From IMG/VR virus record IMGVR_UViG_2778261214_000002: a stretch of 6,874 nt of DNA; one strand, written 5' to 3'. Origin of the DNA: a virus (lineage: Duplodnaviria > Heunggongvirae > Uroviricota > Caudoviricetes). The notes under the pieces were generated by a model. The model was not told the DNA's origin. It saw only the letters and a list, made by a program, of their open reading frames with translations, and did no database searches. The position numbers and the translations under genes were made by a program. Position 1 is the first letter of the stretch. The number at the start of each line of letters is the position of its first letter. Below, one piece after another: positions 1 to 6,874 of this stretch.

Positions 1-651
1 ATGGCGATCGCCGCTGCTGCGCGTGATGGCGAACGATGGCAACGGCTGGCCCTGTGCGTTCACGCCACCACCGGGCATGATGAATAACAGATTACCGCTT
101 TTTACCGTAGTGATTGCGCCCAGCATTTCCGCCATGCGCGTAAGGAAGGACATGTCACTTTCTTCGGTCTGGTCGGCGTGGTCGATTTCGATATCCATCA
201 GCATTTCGCTGATTTGCGGTTTCAGACCGTACCGATGAGCGATGGCGGATACCACACGCTCAACGGTCACATCATGCCAGGACACCTCACGTTTAACGTT
301 AAATTCATCCCGGAAATCTGCGCTTCTGGCTGAAACAGTCAGCCTGTCCGGCGGTCCTTCGTGTGCGATTTCATCAACAATGTAAGACCCTTTTTCTGTC
401 AGCGGTTCGCCTTTCCAGCCAATGAGAACCGTCAGGCGCGCGCCCCGTGGCGGTAGCTGCAACTGACCATCCGCATCATCCAGCGTGATGGTGAGCTGGT
501 CTGCCTCAAATCCCCGGTTGTCGGTCAGCGACAGGCTCATCAGGCGCTCTGCCACGCCGGACAGCGTTTTACCCTCCGCGAGAATATCAAAATCCGGCAT
601 TTTTACGGGGTCTGTGCCCTGGCTGAGCAATTGCATGGTGGTGTCGGTCAT
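1..651 (-). CDS. P2 gpD-like tail protein (late control gene D family), N-terminal 217 codons; 3' end runs off the window
   Basis: Hand translation of the reverse strand from ATG (complement of 649-651) to position 1 is open with no stop: MTDTTMQLLSQGTDPVKMPDFDILAEGKTLSGVAERLMSLSLTDNRGFEADQLTITLDDADGQLQLPPRGARLTVLIGWKG...SADFRDEF...SWHDVTVERVVSAI...ESDMSFLTRMAEML...ITRSSGDRH. Motifs (TDNRGFEADQL, IGWKG, SADFR, SWHD, FLTR, ITRSxGDRH) match my recollection of P2 gpD. SD-like GGGAGGG lies 5-11 nt upstream of the ATG on the - strand (complement of 657-663). Absent from the supplied ORF track because it has no in-window stop. Start could alternatively be the internal ATG at 600. Confidence 0.8.
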   Translation of the reverse strand, partial: MTDTTMQLLSQGTDPVKMPDFDILAEGKTLSGVAERLMSLSLTDNRGFEADQLTITLDDADGQLQLPPRGARLTVLIGWKGEPLTEKGSYIVDEIAHEGPPDRLTVSARSADFRDEFNVKREVSWHDVTVERVVSAIAHRYGLKPQISEMLMDIEIDHADQTEESDMSFLTRMAEMLGAITTVKSGNLLFIMPGGGVNAQGQPLPSFAITRSSGDRH

Positions 652-808
652 CTGCTCCCTCCCTGTGCGGCATGGTCGCATGTGCGTGCGGAGGGGGTTA
701 CTGCTTTTTGTTGTCGCCGGGTCGGGAGAACGGCGCAGGGGTGAGATTACGCGCGTGGTGGGTGATGATTGTTGCCGAATCATTTAACGGATACAAGGGG
801 CTGAAGCT
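652..808. promoter_or_regulatory. Divergent intergenic region between the gpD-like gene (-) and the sheath gene (+); presumed to hold both promoters
   Basis: 157 bp non-coding gap between two divergently oriented start codons. No good sigma70 -35/-10 pair is visible by eye, which fits activator-dependent phage late promoters. Direct repeat TGTGCG at 664-669 and 681-686. Promoter positions not resolved. Confidence 0.35.
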
Positions 809-1993
809 ATGAGTGAAACTCGTTTTCATGGTGCCCGTGTTACGGAAAATACCGACCTGGTAACAGCGATTAACGATGTTGATTCCAGCGTTATCGGTAT
901 CGTGGCAACGGCGGATGATGCGGACGCGGAGCTGTTCCCGCTGAACAAGCCCACACTGCTGACCCGCGTCAATGACGTGCTGGGAAAATGCGGAACAACG
1001 GGGACGCTTTATCGTGCGCTTAAGGCCATCGCAGACCAGGTGAGCACAAAGGTGATCGTCGTTCGCGTGGCTGAACACAAAGAAGAAGACGGAAAGACGC
1101 AGGATCAACTGGTTATCGGTGGTTCTGAGGATGACGGCAGCTATACGGGGATGTATGCGCTGCTTGTTGCAGAGCAGGATGAAAGCATCGGATACCGTCC
1201 GCGTATTCTGGCCGCGCCGGAGCTGGACACGGAGGCGGTAACAAAATCCCTGTGCGTGATTGCGGGTAAACTGCGCGCGTTTGTGTATGCCACATGTCAT
1301 GGTTGTAACACGATGGCTGAGGAGATTACCTACCGCCAGAAATTCAACGAACGTGAGGTGATGCTCTTATGGCCTGACTTCATCGCCTACAACCCGAAAA
1401 GTGGCAAAAACGAAACGTTCCCCGCGCCTGCTTATGCGTGCGGCCTTCGTGCGTACATTGACCATGAGCAGGGCTGGCACAAATCGCTGTCCAACGTTCC
1501 GGTTAAAAATGTGCTGGGAATGTCCAGGCATGTGTTCTGGTCGTTGCAGGCCGAAGACAGTGATGCCAACAGCCTCAATAACAAAGAAATCACGACCATT
1601 ATTCGTCGCAACGGGTTCCGCTTCTGGGGCAACCGCACACCGGAAACGAACGCCTACATCTTTGAGGTGTATACCCGAACCGCACAGGTGCTGGCTGATT
1701 CAATTGCGGAAGCGCAGTTTGAAACCATCGACAGTCCACTGACGCCTGCGAACGTGAAGGATGTTATCAGTGCCATCAGGGCAAAACTGGATTCACTGGT
1801 TACTGCCGGGAAACTGATTGGCGCGGAGTGCTGGTATGACGTGGTGGATAACGGCACCACGGATTTACGTCAGGGGCGTGTGCGTATTCGCTACAAATAT
1901 ACGCCCGTTCCCCCGCTGGAAGACATGGAGCTTTACCAGACGTTTACTGATGAATTCTTTGGTCCCGCATTTGCGGTGCTGGGAGGTGCCTGA
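809..1993 (+). CDS. Contractile tail sheath protein (P2 gpFI-like)
   Basis: 394-aa ORF. N-terminus and internal motifs (FPLNKP, LRAF, YRQ, WPDF, GWHKSLSNV, IRRNGFRFWGNRT, NYTRTAQV, YTPVPPLE) match recalled P2 FI sheath. SD-like AAGGGG 8-9 nt upstream of ATG 809. Stop TGA 1991-1993 overlaps the next start (TGATG). Confidence 0.95.
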   Translation: MSETRFHGARVTENTDLVTAINDVDSSVIGIVATADDADAELFPLNKPTLLTRVNDVLGKCGTTGTLYRALKAIADQVSTKVIVVRVAEHKEEDGKTQDQLVIGGSEDDGSYTGMYALLVAEQDESIGYRPRILAAPELDTEAVTKSLCVIAGKLRAFVYATCHGCNTMAEEITYRQKFNEREVMLLWPDFIAYNPKSGKNETFPAPAYACGLRAYIDHEQGWHKSLSNVPVKNVLGMSRHVFWSLQAEDSDANSLNNKEITTIIRRNGFRFWGNRTPETNAYIFEVYTRTAQVLADSIAEAQFETIDSPLTPANVKDVISAIRAKLDSLVTAGKLIGAECWYDVVDNGTTDLRQGRVRIRYKYTPVPPLEDMELYQTFTDEFFGPAFAVLGGA

Positions 1994-2505
1994 TGGCTGT
2001 ACCAAAACATCTTCGCTTTTTTACGTTGTTTGTGGATGGTGAAAACGAAGTGGGTAAAGTGACATCCGTCACGCCGCCCAAACTGACGCGCAAAACCGAC
2101 AGTTATCGTGGTGGTGGCATGATGGGGGCGGTAAGTATTGATCTCGGTCTGGACGACTCCGCGCTTGATGCGAGCTTTGTCATGGGTGGAGCTGTTCGTG
2201 CACTGTTCCTTAAGTATGGCGGCACGATTGACGGCACGCTGCTGCGTTTTGCGGGTGAATATTACACCGATGCAGAAAGCGATCTGTATGAAATCGAGAT
2301 GCGCGGGCGTGTGACGGAAATTGATATGGGGGAGGCCAAACAGGGCGAAGCCACATCACACACATACGCTGTCAAAAACACCTACTACAAGCTGAGTGTT
2401 AACGATCGCCCGCTGTGGGAAATCGACCTGTTGAACCACATCTACCGGAAGGACGGCAAGGACATTGTGCCTGACCGCATTCGCTCCGCGCTTGGGCTTG
2501 GCTGA
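1993..2505 (+). CDS. Tail tube protein (P2 gpFII-like)
   Basis: 170-aa ORF directly after and 1 nt overlapping the sheath gene (translational coupling). GGGAGG SD at 1981-1986. Sheath-then-tube order and size are typical of P2-like myoviruses. Confidence 0.93.
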   Translation: MAVPKHLRFFTLFVDGENEVGKVTSVTPPKLTRKTDSYRGGGMMGAVSIDLGLDDSALDASFVMGGAVRALFLKYGGTIDGTLLRFAGEYYTDAESDLYEIEMRGRVTEIDMGEAKQGEATSHTYAVKNTYYKLSVNDRPLWEIDLLNHIYRKDGKDIVPDRIRSALGLG

Positions 2506-2560
2506 TAAGTAATATGCAGGCGGCGCAGTGCGTCGCCTCTGACTGAAAAGGAGACAACTG

Positions 2561-2935
2561 ATGAAAGACATCGATACTGAAACCCGGAATAACACCGTAG
2601 CGGATGATGTGACGGCAGGTGAGGATATGGCTGTCGAACGTGGTGTAAAACTTTCCCGGCCAATTGAGCGTGGTGCCGAAAAAATCACATATGTGGAAAT
2701 CACCGGGGCTATTGAGCAGGCGGGATCCCTGCGTGGTCTGTCGCTGTCTGATGTGCTGAATCTGAAAGCGGATACCATGTTCACGCTGTTGCCTCGCGTG
2801 ACTTCGCCACGACTGGATGAAGTGATGATTAAAAAAATGTCGTCACGCGATTTTATTCAGTTGTGCGCTGTGGCTGTAAATTTTATGAGCGAGCCAGACT
2901 CTGGCGCGAAGAGCGTGCAGGAGACGGCAGCGTAA
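2561..2935 (+). CDS. Tail assembly chaperone (P2 gpE-like)
   Basis: 124-aa ORF with strong SD AAAAGGAGA (2546-2554) before ATG 2561. Position between tube and tape measure genes, acidic small protein, and an overlapping -1 frame extension are the hallmarks of the gpE/gpE+E' pair (analogous to lambda G/GT). Confidence 0.85.
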   Translation: MKDIDTETRNNTVADDVTAGEDMAVERGVKLSRPIERGAEKITYVEITGAIEQAGSLRGLSLSDVLNLKADTMFTLLPRVTSPRLDEVMIKKMSSRDFIQLCAVAVNFMSEPDSGAKSVQETAA

Positions 2936-3099
2936 TCACCCTGGTGTGCTTTGAGCACATCGAAGATCTGGTGGCGGATATTGCCGCCATTTTTAACTGG
3001 TCGCCCGCCGAAATCTTCATGATGACGCCCGGCGAAGTGGTTAGCTGGCGTGAGCGGGCGGCACTTCGCAGCGGGAATGCAGATAATGAAGACTCTTGA
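2561..3099 (+). CDS. gpE+E' fusion produced by predicted programmed -1 ribosomal frameshift (shift somewhere in 2833-2935, E' frame continues to TGA 3097-3099)
   Basis: The -1 frame relative to E is open from 2833 (after TAA 2830-2832) to 3099 and has no SD-preceded start of its own (first start-like codon is GTG 2863 with no SD). Candidate slip sites: A AAT TTT at 2878-2884 (X XXY YYZ in E frame) and the A7 run 2831-2837. Fusion would be about 179 aa. Confidence 0.55.
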
Positions 3100-3340
3100 C
3101 ATCCGGGTCGCTTTCAGCGCCGTTGACAGGCTGACCCGGCCTGCCGAAAACGCCCGCCGCCTGATGGGGCAGTTTGGTGACTCCATCCAGCGAACGCAGG
3201 GGGCGATCAAAAATCTCGAGCGTCAGGCGCGTTCATTTGAGCGCGCCCGGGACGCTGTCAGTAAAGCGGATGCGGGTATCGTGAAAGCACGACGCCAGCT
3301 TAACGCCCTTAATCCGTTAGCGCGTAACGCGAGCGCGTGA
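3086..3340 (+). CDS. Tail tape measure protein, N-terminal fragment (frame-shifted relative to the main body)
   Basis: Frame-2 ORF MKTLDIRVAFSAVDRLTRPAENARRLMGQFGDSIQRTQGAIKNLERQ... (85 aa from ATG 3086; alternative starts ATG 3077, GTG 3050), stop TGA 3338-3340. Coiled-coil-like N-terminus typical of tape measure proteins. Overlaps the E' stop. Confidence 0.6.
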   Translation: MKTLDIRVAFSAVDRLTRPAENARRLMGQFGDSIQRTQGAIKNLERQARSFERARDAVSKADAGIVKARRQLNALNPLARNASA

Positions 3341-3440
3341 GCGGTATTCGCGCGCGCAGGAAACAGCGGGAAAACTGAAAACAGGTGGTGCGCTGGCAAT
3401 TGGTGCGGCAGCGGCGGGCGGCTATGCTGCCGGGCGTTTT

Positions 3441-5657
3441 TTGCAGCCTGCGATCGGGTTCGGGAAAGAGATGTCCCGCGTTCAGGCACTGACGCGAATC
3501 GACAAAAACAGCCCGCAGTTTAAGGCGCTGCGTGAGCAGGCGTTAAAACTGGGCTCTGAAACGCAGTTCACCGCAGGCGATGCCGCCAGTGGGCAGGCAT
3601 TTCTTGCAATGGCTGGCTTCACACCGCAGGCCATTCAGGCTGCGCTCCCTGGCGTACTGAGCATGGCAACGGCTGGCGGTATGGACCTCGGTGAGACGGC
3701 GGATATTGGCTCAAATATCCTGACGCAGTTCGGTCTTTCTGCTGACCAGATGGACCGGGTCGGCGACACACTCACCGCAGCGTTTACCCGTACCAACACT
3801 GACCTTCGCGCACTGGGTGAAACCATGAAATATGCAGGTCCGGTGGCGGGTAAGCTGGGAATATCGCTGGAGCAGGCCGCAGCGATGGCGGGCGTGCTGG
3901 CGAATATGGGTATCAGAGGGAGTGATGCCGGGACGGCAATGCGTGCCAGCCTGGCTCGTCTGGCATCACCGCCAAAGGCGGCAGCAGAGGCGCTGAAAGA
4001 GCTTGGCGTGTCTGTCTCGGATGCCGGGGGCAAAATGCGTCCGATGGAGGATGTGCTGGCTGACCTTTATAAAGCTACCCGCAAATACGGGGAAGTTGAC
4101 CGGGTATCGTTCTTTAAGGACATTGCCGGAGAAGAGGCTTTCACATCATTTATGGCCCTCGTTGATGCGGCAGGTGACGGCTCCTTACCCAAACTGAGAA
4201 AAGAACTTGAAGGTGCGCGCGGTGAGGCTGAACGCACGGCAAAGGTTATGGCCAACAACCTTGACGGCGATCTGAAATCACTCAGCAGTGCATGGGAAGG
4301 GTTGCGCATCCGCATTGCAGATCTGATTGACGGTCCGCTGCGTTCTGTCACGCAGTGGCTCACGCGTGTGGTATCAAAGGTGACGGCGCTGGCGCAGGCC
4401 CATCCCGCACTGACGCGCCAGCTACTGATTGCAGGCGGTGCACTGCTGGCAATGACTGCAACGGTTGGCTCGTTGTCGCTGGCTATTGGTGTGCTTGCTG
4501 GCCCGCTGGCAAAACTGCGTCTTGGTTTTTCCCTCCTGACCGGATCAATGAATGCTGTCAGGGTTCTGCCAGCACTATGGGGAATGGTGACGGGTTCCGT
4601 TTCTTTACTGGGAGGCGCTATCGGGGCGTTGTTCAGTCCGGTTGGTCTTATCGTGGCTGCGCTTGCCGGAGCTGCCGTTCTTATCTGGAAATACTGGGAT
4701 CCCATCAGGGCATTTTTTGCCGGGGTGTTCAGCGGGATTATGGAAAGGCTGACCCCGTTGCGCGAAACCTTTGAACGGTTTGGTCCTGTTTTTGACGCAA
4801 TCGGGAGTGGGATCAGCCAGGTGTTTAACTGGTTTAAATCGCTGCTGTCACCGATGGAGTCCAGCAAGGAAACTCTGGATAAATGTACCAGTGCTGGCGA
4901 GATATTCGGTAACGTTCTTGGCGGTGCGTTACAACTTGTTCTGACACCTGCAAAAATGTTGCTGGATACGCTGGCGTGGATACTTGAAAAGCTTGGTGTG
5001 CTTCCGGATGAAGCGGAAAGGGCGCGCAAGAAAATCGAAGACGCACAGCGTGCGGCCATTCTTCAGGACAAGGTTGCCTTGCTTCAGGGGGACCTGGCGA
5101 AAATCAATCCGCCGAAGCCTGTGGAAAATGGCAATGGCACCGGAGGTGATAACCCCAAAGACAATAAACCGCTCACAGACAGCAATACCGGTACGCTGCG
5201 CAGACTCAGCAAAATTGCTGATAACACAGGTAAGCTGGTTGAGGAGACGAAAAAACGCATTGGCCCCGGCGATATTGTCTTTAAAAACCTGCCCCGAGCA
5301 CTTGCTGTTCGTGGGGAGTGGCAGGAGCGGAAGATTGCGCAGGTCAGTAAGCCTGCCCCCGCAATTAATATCACACCCGTGGTCCCGGCTCCGCTGCCTC
5401 CGGCGCTGGTCCCTGTTGTTGCGGCCAGCTCCCGCCCGGTGGCGGAGGCTATACGATCTCCAGTGGCATCAGTTCCTGTAACTTCCCGTAACCGGGAGCC
5501 TGTTGCCTCCGGATTTGGTGGTGAAATTCATGTTCATCTGCATAACGTTGTTACGCAGAATCCCCGCGAACTGGCGAAACTGGTCGGTGAAATGGTCAGG
5601 GCAGAAATGGAACGGCGCGCCCGTGCCGGGCGTGGCAGTTTTTACGATAAAGATTGA
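3441..5657 (+). CDS. Tail tape measure protein, main body (P2 gpT-like); frame is open from 3321
   Basis: Frame-0 reading is open from 3321 (after TAG 3318-3320) to TGA 5655-5657. First in-frame start-like codons are TTG 3441 and ATG 3471. Ala/Gly-rich alpha-helical protein with a central hydrophobic stretch (LLIAGGALLAMTATVGSLSLAIGVLAGPLA...) and a Pro/Val-rich C-terminus, located between gpE and gpU: characteristic tape measure. Confidence 0.9.
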   Translation: MQPAIGFGKEMSRVQALTRIDKNSPQFKALREQALKLGSETQFTAGDAASGQAFLAMAGFTPQAIQAALPGVLSMATAGGMDLGETADIGSNILTQFGLSADQMDRVGDTLTAAFTRTNTDLRALGETMKYAGPVAGKLGISLEQAAAMAGVLANMGIRGSDAGTAMRASLARLASPPKAAAEALKELGVSVSDAGGKMRPMEDVLADLYKATRKYGEVDRVSFFKDIAGEEAFTSFMALVDAAGDGSLPKLRKELEGARGEAERTAKVMANNLDGDLKSLSSAWEGLRIRIADLIDGPLRSVTQWLTRVVSKVTALAQAHPALTRQLLIAGGALLAMTATVGSLSLAIGVLAGPLAKLRLGFSLLTGSMNAVRVLPALWGMVTGSVSLLGGAIGALFSPVGLIVAALAGAAVLIWKYWDPIRAFFAGVFSGIMERLTPLRETFERFGPVFDAIGSGISQVFNWFKSLLSPMESSKETLDKCTSAGEIFGNVLGGALQLVLTPAKMLLDTLAWILEKLGVLPDEAERARKKIEDAQRAAILQDKVALLQGDLAKINPPKPVENGNGTGGDNPKDNKPLTDSNTGTLRRLSKIADNTGKLVEETKKRIGPGDIVFKNLPRALAVRGEWQERKIAQVSKPAPAINITPVVPAPLPPALVPVVAASSRPVAEAIRSPVASVPVTSRNREPVASGFGGEIHVHLHNVVTQNPRELAKLVGEMVRAEMERRARAGRGSFYDKD

Positions 5658-5663
5658 GGAGTC

Positions 5664-6158
5664 ATGGCCATGATGATGATCTACGGCATGTTTGTTTTTG
5701 AGCTGCGCACGCTGCCGCATCAGCAGTTACAGCAAAACAAAAGCTGGCGGCATGTGAAAAATGAACGCGTTAACCGTTCAGCAAGCTGGCAGTATATCGG
5801 TGCAGGTGATGATCGCATCGTTCTTTCTGGTGTGCTTTATCCTGAAATTACAGGTGGCGAAGTGTCGCTGTCGCTGCTGACCACGCAGGCGTATACAGGA
5901 CGACCCTGGCCTTTGATTGATGGCGTCGGGCAGATTTACGGCATGTATGTGCTGACTGAAACGAATACGACCCGTTCCGAGTTTGATCGCTACGGTAAGG
6001 CGAAAAAGATAGAATTTTCACTGACTCTTGAACGCTGTGATGAGGATTTGCGGGAGCGCCTGCAATCCTCATCGTTCAGTGATATGCTGTCCGGCTTCAA
6101 AGATAAGGTCACATCATCCCTTAACAGCGCGGCCAGCTCCGTTAAAGGGCTGTTTTGA
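5664..6158 (+). CDS. Tail protein (P2 gpU-like)
   Basis: 164-aa ORF. N-terminus MMMIYGMFVFELRTLP... resembles recalled P2 gpU (MMMVLGLFVF...). GAGGAG SD at 5656-5661 overlaps the tape measure stop; true start may be ATG 5670 (8-nt spacer) rather than 5664. Confidence 0.88.
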   Translation: MAMMMIYGMFVFELRTLPHQQLQQNKSWRHVKNERVNRSASWQYIGAGDDRIVLSGVLYPEITGGEVSLSLLTTQAYTGRPWPLIDGVGQIYGMYVLTETNTTRSEFDRYGKAKKIEFSLTLERCDEDLRERLQSSSFSDMLSGFKDKVTSSLNSAASSVKGLF

Positions 6159-6165
6159 TTAACGC

Positions 6166-6202
6166 AAAACCGCTAATGGTCAGATTAGCGGTTTTTTATT
6201 TT
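6166..6202. terminator. Intrinsic (rho-independent) terminator between convergent gpU and invertase genes
   Basis: Perfect 12-bp inverted repeat AAAACCGCTAAT (6166-6177) / ATTAGCGGTTTT (6184-6195) with 6-nt loop, followed by TTATTTT on the + strand. On the - strand the stem is followed by a weaker U tract. Sits 8 nt after the gpU stop and directly abuts the invertase stop (6196-6198). Confidence 0.75.
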
Positions 6203-6786
6203 CCCTGAGTCTGCCCGGTTGTTTCTTCAGCCTGTATATCGCCTACAGGGTGATAACGATAAATCGTCGATATACCGATGTCGTAAATGATCGCCAGTTG
6301 TTTCCTGTCATGGCCGTTTTTAATCAGCCTTTCTATTTGCTCATGTTGTTCTTTTGTCAACTTCGGGCGACGTCCGCCAATGCGTCCCTGTGCTCGTGCT
6401 GCTGCCAGCCCGGCCAGTGTACGCTCTACAATTAATTCACGTTCCATTTCTGCTAAAGCTCCCATGACGTGAAAAAAGAAACGCCCCATGGGTGTTGATG
6501 TGTCAATGCTGTCCGTCAGGCTACGGAAATTAACACCTTTTTCCCGCAATTCCTCAATAAGCGTGATCAGGTGTTTCATACTCCTGCCCAGCCTGTCCAG
6601 CTTCCAGACAACCAGCGTATCTCCTTCTGATAGCGTTCTGAGCAGTTTTTTCAATCCCGGTCTGGCTGATTTCGTTCCGCTGATTTTATCTTCAAAAATC
6701 AGTTCACATCCTGCGCACTCCAGCGCGTTACGCTGCAATTCCGTGTTCTGGTCATTTGTTGATACGCGAACATAACCAATAAGCAT
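6196..6786 (-). CDS. Site-specific DNA invertase, serine recombinase (Hin/Gin/Cin/Pin family)
   Basis: Reverse-strand ORF MLIGYVRVSTNDQNT...LVVWKLDRLGRSMKHL...GVNFRSLTDSIDTSTPMGRFFFHVMGALAEMERELIVERT...GRIGGRRPKLT... is near-identical in motif content to recalled Gin/Pin/Cin/Hin invertases (catalytic Ser in YVRVSTNDQ, C-terminal HTH). Start chosen at ATG 6786 (SD AGGGGG 6 nt upstream on the - strand); the ORF track extends to ATG 6792. Confidence 0.95.
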   Translation of the reverse strand: MLIGYVRVSTNDQNTELQRNALECAGCELIFEDKISGTKSARPGLKKLLRTLSEGDTLVVWKLDRLGRSMKHLITLIEELREKGVNFRSLTDSIDTSTPMGRFFFHVMGALAEMERELIVERTLAGLAAARAQGRIGGRRPKLTKEQHEQIERLIKNGHDRKQLAIIYDIGISTIYRYHPVGDIQAEETTGQTQGK

Positions 6787-6841
6787 GAGCATCCCCCTGA
6801 ATAAAAACCGGAGATGATGCCAGTTACCCGTTATCTCTGCA

Positions 6842-6867
6842 TTTTCACAAACGTTGGTTTGGGAGAA
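6842..6867. other. Candidate invertase crossover site (hix/gix/cix/pix-like 26-bp imperfect dyad with 2-bp core)
   Basis: TTTTCACAAACG-TT-GGTTTGGGAGAA. The reverse complement of the right half (TTCTCCCAAACC) matches the left half at 9 of 12 positions. Half-sites fit the recalled family pattern TTnTCnnAAACC with a 2-bp central core. Lies about 55 bp upstream of the invertase start, at the window edge. Confidence 0.55.
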
Positions 6868-6874
6868 GCCAGAT

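Follow-up and report, generated by a model that had tools for sequence, protein, structure and literature searches.

The contig end of a P88-like Escherichia coli prophage as the very probable control end of a Pin/Gin/Cin-type tail fibre inversion switch

Tail module and invertase gene

The window, by which the whole analysed stretch of 6,874 bp is meant, is identical in sequence to one entire draft contig, LPXZ01000173.1 of GCA_001571835.1, which stops 7 nt beyond a crossover site, and what an earlier note on this DNA called the window edge is the end of this draft contig. The ORF list and the Pfam scans exposed a P2-family tail module, which is followed by a convergent serine DNA invertase gene with its leader and crossover site, as shown in Table 1. 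In BLAST comparisons with phage records, P88, P88_4B11 and Citrobacter phage Shae_phiSM exhibited 94–97% identity over positions 1–6785, and the gene order D / FI FII E E' T U / invertase is common to the window and these three phages; these likenesses place the module among the P88-like phages (Xuanwuvirus, Peduoviridae). The junction between U and the invertase gene was detected in about 620 of 5,426 complete E. coli genomes, and the paper on P88 nowhere mentions inversion (PMC5285337).

Table 1. Coordinates of the features of the window, with one open reading frame of the related locus L005
Feature	Position	Strand	Basis or remark
gpD, N-terminal part	1–651	-	assigned from gene positions in related loci
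Sheath FI	809–1993		ORF list/Pfam
Tube FII	1993–2505		ORF list/Pfam
E	2561–2935		ORF list/Pfam
Tape measure T	from 3086 (gene 3086–5657)		ORF list/Pfam
gpU	5664–6158		convergent with the invertase gene; ORF list/Pfam
Hairpin terminator	6166–6195		12-bp stem, 6-nt loop, then T run; abuts the invertase stop codon
Serine DNA invertase gene, 196 aa, Pin/Gin/Cin/Hin family	6196–6786	-	Pfam, alignments, structures
Stretch homologous to the recombinational (Fis-binding) enhancer	6697–6768	.	putative, by homology
Invertase leader, 55 nt	6787–6841	-	GGGGG ribosome-binding site at 6793–6797
Crossover site, 26 bp, pix/cix type, invertase-proximal	6842–6867		consensus match
Site, outer half	6842–6853
Site, central TT	6854–6855		putative exchange point
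Site, inner half	6856–6867
First 20 bases of the invertible segment, start of silent tip cassette B	6855–6874	+	reads ...GLGE/AR...
65-aa ORF after tip B	L005 9406–9603	-	same in L004 and L006, exact in both orientation states

The FI-FII-E-T-U block (652–6195) is inverted with respect to the canonical P2 order, the orientation of gpD being kept, and the ends of this block exhibited no secondary cix-like crossover sites, even at a loose threshold. The canonical order, with the invertase gene, FI...U and D on one strand, was observed in the other P2-like prophage of the EPEC genome (L015, NC_011601 2979534–2986464). Related prophages harbor variable cargo between gpD and ogr, in a slot immediately to the left of the window (L001 655–1569; L008 17640–20591; L006 17692–20591; L005 17665–19101), such as a TIR-domain protein; a SIR2 and DUF87 pair; a 930-aa protein beside a HetE-N gene; and a 478-aa protein, and this slot looks like a defence-gene hotspot.

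The longest ORF of the invertase gene occupies 6196–6792 on the minus strand, with its stop codon at 6196–6198. Translation almost certainly begins at the ATG at 6786 and not at that at 6792, because GGGGG stands 6 nt upstream of the former, it aligns with residue 1 of Gin, and it is used by RefSeq and by the gene calls of the contig itself, while the alternative in-frame ATG at 6792 is without usable ribosome-binding spacing. The encoded protein comprises a Resolvase domain (5e-52) and an HTH_7 domain (3e-12) in Pfam, and exhibits identities of 82.5% with e14 PinE, 76% with Mu Gin and 75% with P1 Cin, as well as 96.9% over 194 aa with the invertase of the EPEC E2348/69 prophage in BLAST. The Gin structures 4m6f and 3uj3 matched it at an E-value of 1e-91 and gamma-delta resolvase at 2e-31, the characterised invertases being closer to the window protein than the resolvases are. 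The catalytic Ser9 is conserved and aligns with Gin Ser9, the residue that is mutated to Ala in structure 3uj3. Among the classical systems, e14 Pin/pix, and not Gin or Cin, is the nearest relative.

The residues specific to Fis-dependent invertases are known from Hin as Gln151, Arg154 and Leu155 together with basic residues at 47, 48 and 51 (McLean et al., PMC3798978). The corresponding residues for contact with Fis and the enhancer, read from the Gin alignments, are all present in the window protein as Q150, R153 and L154, and as K46, K47 and R50. For this correspondence the Hin numbering is taken to be offset by +1 from that of the window protein.

The leader of the invertase gene resembles those of e14 pinE and Mu gin in alignments, and a sigma-70 promoter scan of 6100–6874 returned no consensus promoter. 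The hairpin at 6166–6195 is the terminator common to the convergent gpU and invertase genes and not a recombination site, as it consists of a stem-loop with a T run and is placed between these two genes. A further terminator-like hairpin at 6806–6825 on the minus strand, with 6 pairs and scan counts barely above those of shuffled sequences, was rejected and is given no role.

Crossover site and enhancer stretch

The crossover site reads TTTTCACAAACG TT GGTTTGGGAGAA, with 9 of its 12 half-site positions being symmetric, and it matches 17 of the 18 specified positions of the family consensus TTNTCNNAAACCNNGGTTTNNGANAA. It was the sole consensus match in the window, even when the threshold was lowered to 12 of 18, and 200 shuffles yielded a mean of 0.015 matches at 14 or more positions. 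The distance between the site and the ATG at 6786 is exactly 55 nt. The site shares 25 of 26 positions with the proximal pix site of e14 (TTCTCCCAAACCAACGTTTATGAAAA versus ...GTGAAAA), and its central TT is the same as in P1 cixL and cixR, whereas Mu gix carries TC.

The earlier note had described a Gin/Pin/Cin-like serine invertase, a 26-bp hix/gix-like dyad about 55 bp upstream of its start, the absence of a second site from the window, and the repeat at 6166–6195 as a hairpin with a 6-nt loop rather than a crossover site, and each of these descriptions was borne out: the first by the domains, the catalytic serine and the identities with Cin, Gin and PinE, the second by the consensus match and the exact spacing, the third by the consensus scan of all 6,874 bp, and the last by the stem and the T run. 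The note had also let the invertible DNA start around or beyond 6867, and this point has to be corrected, as strand exchange in this family takes place at the central dinucleotide, here 6854–6855, which lies inside the window. Exchange at this position would mean that the last 19–20 bases of the window are already within the invertible segment, where they would form the start of the silent tip cassette B (Table 1). The comparison of relatives bounds the exchange point to a 15-nt stretch common to both sites (6854–6868), with which the central TT is compatible.

On the plus strand, a frame beginning with ATGs at 6814 and 6817 runs through the site (6814–6874) into the silent cassette, and in relatives this frame is annotated as proteins of 127 aa or 183 aa. 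Translation of a free fibre tip from these ATGs seems unlikely, because GGAG stands merely 0–3 nt from them.

The Cin enhancer is annotated at nt 19–90 of cin in the P1 record, and its counterpart in the window is 81% identical to the stretch of P1 and 78% identical to that of Mu, over DNA which is also coding. Because of this double role, synonymous codons were compared between the window and Mu, P1 and a second EPEC invertase; their identity was 0.52–0.63 in the enhancer codons and 0.29–0.40 in the rest of the gene. This raised synonymous conservation lends modest support to a putative cis element embedded in the coding sequence. Two G-N13-C motifs, at 6751–6765 and 6702–6716, are kept in the window, P1 and Mu, and the centre of the first lies about 96 bp from the centre of the crossover site; the enhancer of Hin is located about 100 bp from its site (PMC3798978). 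By analogy with these systems, Fis would be expected to bind at 6697–6768, and the recombination would be predicted to depend on it.

Partner site, fibre cassettes and orientation states in related prophages

In the collection, 605 blocks contain exactly this invertase protein, and 11 loci that encode it were read. All 11 exhibit the proximal site at the same position and exactly one inverted partner, with central TT/AA, at a distance of 1.6–2.8 kb and inside the tail fibre gene H; the DNA between the sites harbors two fibre-tip cassettes and two assembly genes that face opposite ways. The best proxy for the continuation of the contig is L005, which is 99.7% identical to positions 3320–6874 and whose inverted partner site, TTCTCGCATACC TT GGTTTGGGAGAA, lies 1,597 nt rightward within H. 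The last 7 bases of the window, GCCAGAT, match L005 (GCCAGATATGTC...) and not the flipped loci L004 and L006 (GGCTCTGCATT...).

The H products of L005 and L004 have 354 aa in common and diverge just after the peptide LGLGE, which is encoded by the crossover site itself. Tip A comprises 165 aa with a Collar domain and is followed by a 201-aa Caudo_TAP assembly protein, while tip B, divergent and gp53-like, comprises 109 aa, with matches to phrog_2557 (1e-15) and, just below the cutoff, to Pfam Gp53-like_C (4e-4). The ORF that follows tip B, of 65 aa, covers only the first 66 of the 145 positions of phrog_5400, weakly matches a tail fibre assembly family and looks like a truncated assembly gene; because of this truncation, the orientation with tip B may give a poor fibre or none. 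In L010, a sopE gene (8758–9480; SopE_N, SopE_GEF) was observed between the assembly gene and the invertase gene, in the slot of the silent cassette, a placement that recalls SopE-phi of Salmonella.

Inversion of this segment is recorded in the relatives themselves. The 1,609-bp segment of L005 occurs as its exact reverse complement in L004 and L006, with 0 mismatches, and the flanks of L004 and L005 differ at only 1 of 3,000 and 0 of 3,000 bases, demonstrating recent inversion between near-identical prophages; a second flipped pair, L008 and L012, exhibited 6 mismatches in 1,847. In complete E. coli genomes, the junction of the invertase gene with tip B was detected in 68 and the junction of H with tip B in 36. 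Coexisting inversion variants were observed by sequencing and PCR in the P2-like prophage of EPEC E2348/69 at NC_011601 1891695–1893703 (Goldberg et al. 2014, PMC4272514), and the locus of this prophage (L016) has the gene order of the window and is 96.5–96.8% identical to positions 283–6786. For e14, inversion has likewise been shown experimentally, the defective prophage flipping at about 50:50. What the earlier note had expected to the right of the window was thus encountered in near-identical DNA, namely a second, inverted site within the next 1–4 kb, as in L005; tail fibre and assembly ORFs in opposite orientations between the sites; both orientations, among complete genomes as well as between L005 and the flipped loci; and inversion of a variable tail fibre segment in the manner of Mu, P1 and e14, with an EPEC relative that flips in experiment.

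The best explanation of the whole, held with high confidence, is that the contig end represents the control end of a Pin/Gin/Cin-type inversion switch of a P88-like E. coli prophage, which swaps the tips of the fibre H. Invertase dimers would bind the site at 6842–6867 and its inverted partner about 1.6 kb to the right in H, and host Fis, bound to the enhancer predicted by homology in the 5' end of the invertase gene, would bring two dimers into a tetramer; the tetramer would cut both sites at the central TT and, after subunit rotation, rejoin them with the segment flipped. Each flip would join the constant N-terminal part of H, of 354 aa, in frame to one tip, either A or B, and such an in-frame swap is expected because the coding sequence for LGLGE, a conserved peptide of the fibre, lies in the site itself. 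Going by the end of the contig, its state is the one in which tip B is silent beside the invertase gene and tip A is fused to H, and tip A is expected to be expressed, since tip B occupies the silent position. In the source genome itself, the partner site and the cassettes may be presumed from the relatives, the contig containing 20 bases of the segment, and a change of host range would be a predicted consequence of the flip.

For this copy, a switchable specificity of the particle that the tail module would build is uncertain, since the tape measure gene carries a frameshift in the assembly: at 3319/3320 a net 236 nt is missing when the gene is compared with all 12 related loci and with EPEC L016. 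An in-frame block of 234 nt (78 codons) makes up most of this loss, a GTGT run is 2 nt shorter, and the reading frame meets a stop at 3340. Should this break be real, no tails would come from this copy, and inversion would go on to no effect, as it does in e14. An intact switch in a defective prophage copy, which assembles no tails and whose flipping leaves receptor specificity unchanged, is somewhat unlikely but deserves weight, as the defective e14 keeps flipping with both states about equally frequent. The frameshift is, on the other hand, possibly an assembly artefact, since the contig L018 of a sister assembly is identical to positions 1–3310 and ends there, which puts the junction at a branch of the assembly graph; the tape-measure junction at 3319/3320 is also absent from the best-matching complete E. 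coli genomes. Scanning the contig collection (genome_contigs) for this exact junction gave 0 hits, and the truncated tape measure ORF had no exact protein counterpart on record.

It is very improbable that the site is a relic, the segment having been deleted or replaced in this genome so that a single site is left in cis and nothing inverts. The contig does end 7 nt past the site with the partner outside, cargo has been replaced in relatives, as with sopE in place of the silent cassette in L010, and a remnant prophage of C. rodentium carries a deletion at its invertase junction (PMC6456863); the 20 segment bases of the window, however, match tip B of L005 exactly, none of the 11 loci that encode this same invertase protein has lost the partner, and coexisting orientations would likewise break a contig exactly here. 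The last 21 nt of the contig (6854–6874) are in fact the stretch common to the junctions of tip B with the invertase gene and with H, and the contig end fits an assembly split for which either coexisting orientations or another, related prophage would be responsible, a break that the switch would explain; the contig end as proof of a k = 21 graph split by coexisting orientations was rejected, as the break at 3310 does not fit. Hardly any probability is given to the dyad serving mainly as an operator for autorepression of the invertase gene instead of as a recombination site. Its position 55 nt upstream of the start codon is where a promoter is expected, and no other promoter-like site was found, but flipped segments that are bounded exactly by the site and its partner show that the site recombines, and a regulatory role of the dyad would be additional to the inversion switch and not an alternative to it.

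Known counterparts and mosaic structure

Mu, P1 and e14 are textbook examples of tail fibre switching by invertases of this kind. The switch of the window is correctly recognised but already known, with reports from P2-like prophages of E. coli, and its closest characterised counterpart is the EPEC E2348/69 prophage (NC_011601, 1.89 Mb), which is alike in phage type, gene order, invertase and DNA; it differs in having three 215-bp repeats with four variants, in effect a small shufflon, where the window type has two short sites and two states, and in its invertase 5' end, leader and proximal site, which belong to another mosaic block from about 6710 onward. The e14 Pin system with its P-segment (pinE, stfE/tfaE and stfP/tfaP of E. 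coli K-12) shares, besides the invertase and site identities given above, the location of the site upstream of the invertase gene, a similar leader, a segment of about 1.6–1.8 kb with two tips and two assembly genes in opposite orientation, and a tip A that opens with the same sequence as the stfE tip. In contrast, e14 is a lambdoid remnant and the window a P2-family (P88-like) tail module, and the constant fibre part, tip B and the truncated assembly gene of tip B also differ.

The Gin/G segment of Mu and the Cin/C segment of P1 resemble the system of the window in their invertases (75–76% identity), in 26-bp sites of the same consensus, in an enhancer in the 5' end of the invertase gene, and in the swapping of fibre C-termini (S, S') together with assembly proteins (U, U'). 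They differ in their larger segments (3 kb and 4.2 kb) and in being phages unrelated to P2, and in P1 the site stands at the 3' end of cin, whereas that of the window is upstream of the invertase gene. The Hin/H segment of Salmonella is of the same enzyme family and site design; its central dinucleotide is AA/TT, and some 100 bp separate the enhancer from the proximal site. In Salmonella, however, hin itself is part of the inverted DNA and what moves is a flagellin promoter, while the invertase gene of the window lies outside the segment and coding ends are swapped.

Given these precedents, the inversion switch carries little import beyond correct annotation, by which the contig comes out as that end of a P88-like prophage, with a switchable fibre tip, where tail module and invertase gene lie. 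The annotated fibre genes in such prophages would represent one of two states, and lysogens of this common E. coli prophage type could release particles with either receptor-binding tip.

The sole point that is possibly new, and mildly so, is a mosaic pattern. The identical invertase protein adjoins at least five different cassette sets. The window and EPEC L016 are near-identical up to about 6709, with a drop at 6710–6725, within the enhancer stretch, beyond which the first ~25 invertase codons, the leader and the site diverge sharply from L016; and the invertase gene of P88_4B11 is 100% identical to Mu gin in codons 7–30 and 77% elsewhere. From these three observations it is tentatively suggested, at somewhat less than even chances, that the conserved enhancer stretch acts as a recurrent joint for homologous recombination among P2-like, Mu-like and e14-like elements, in which case a single unit made up of the enhancer start, the leader, the crossover site and the fibre cassettes would be exchanged and the remainder of the invertase gene would stay with the tail module.
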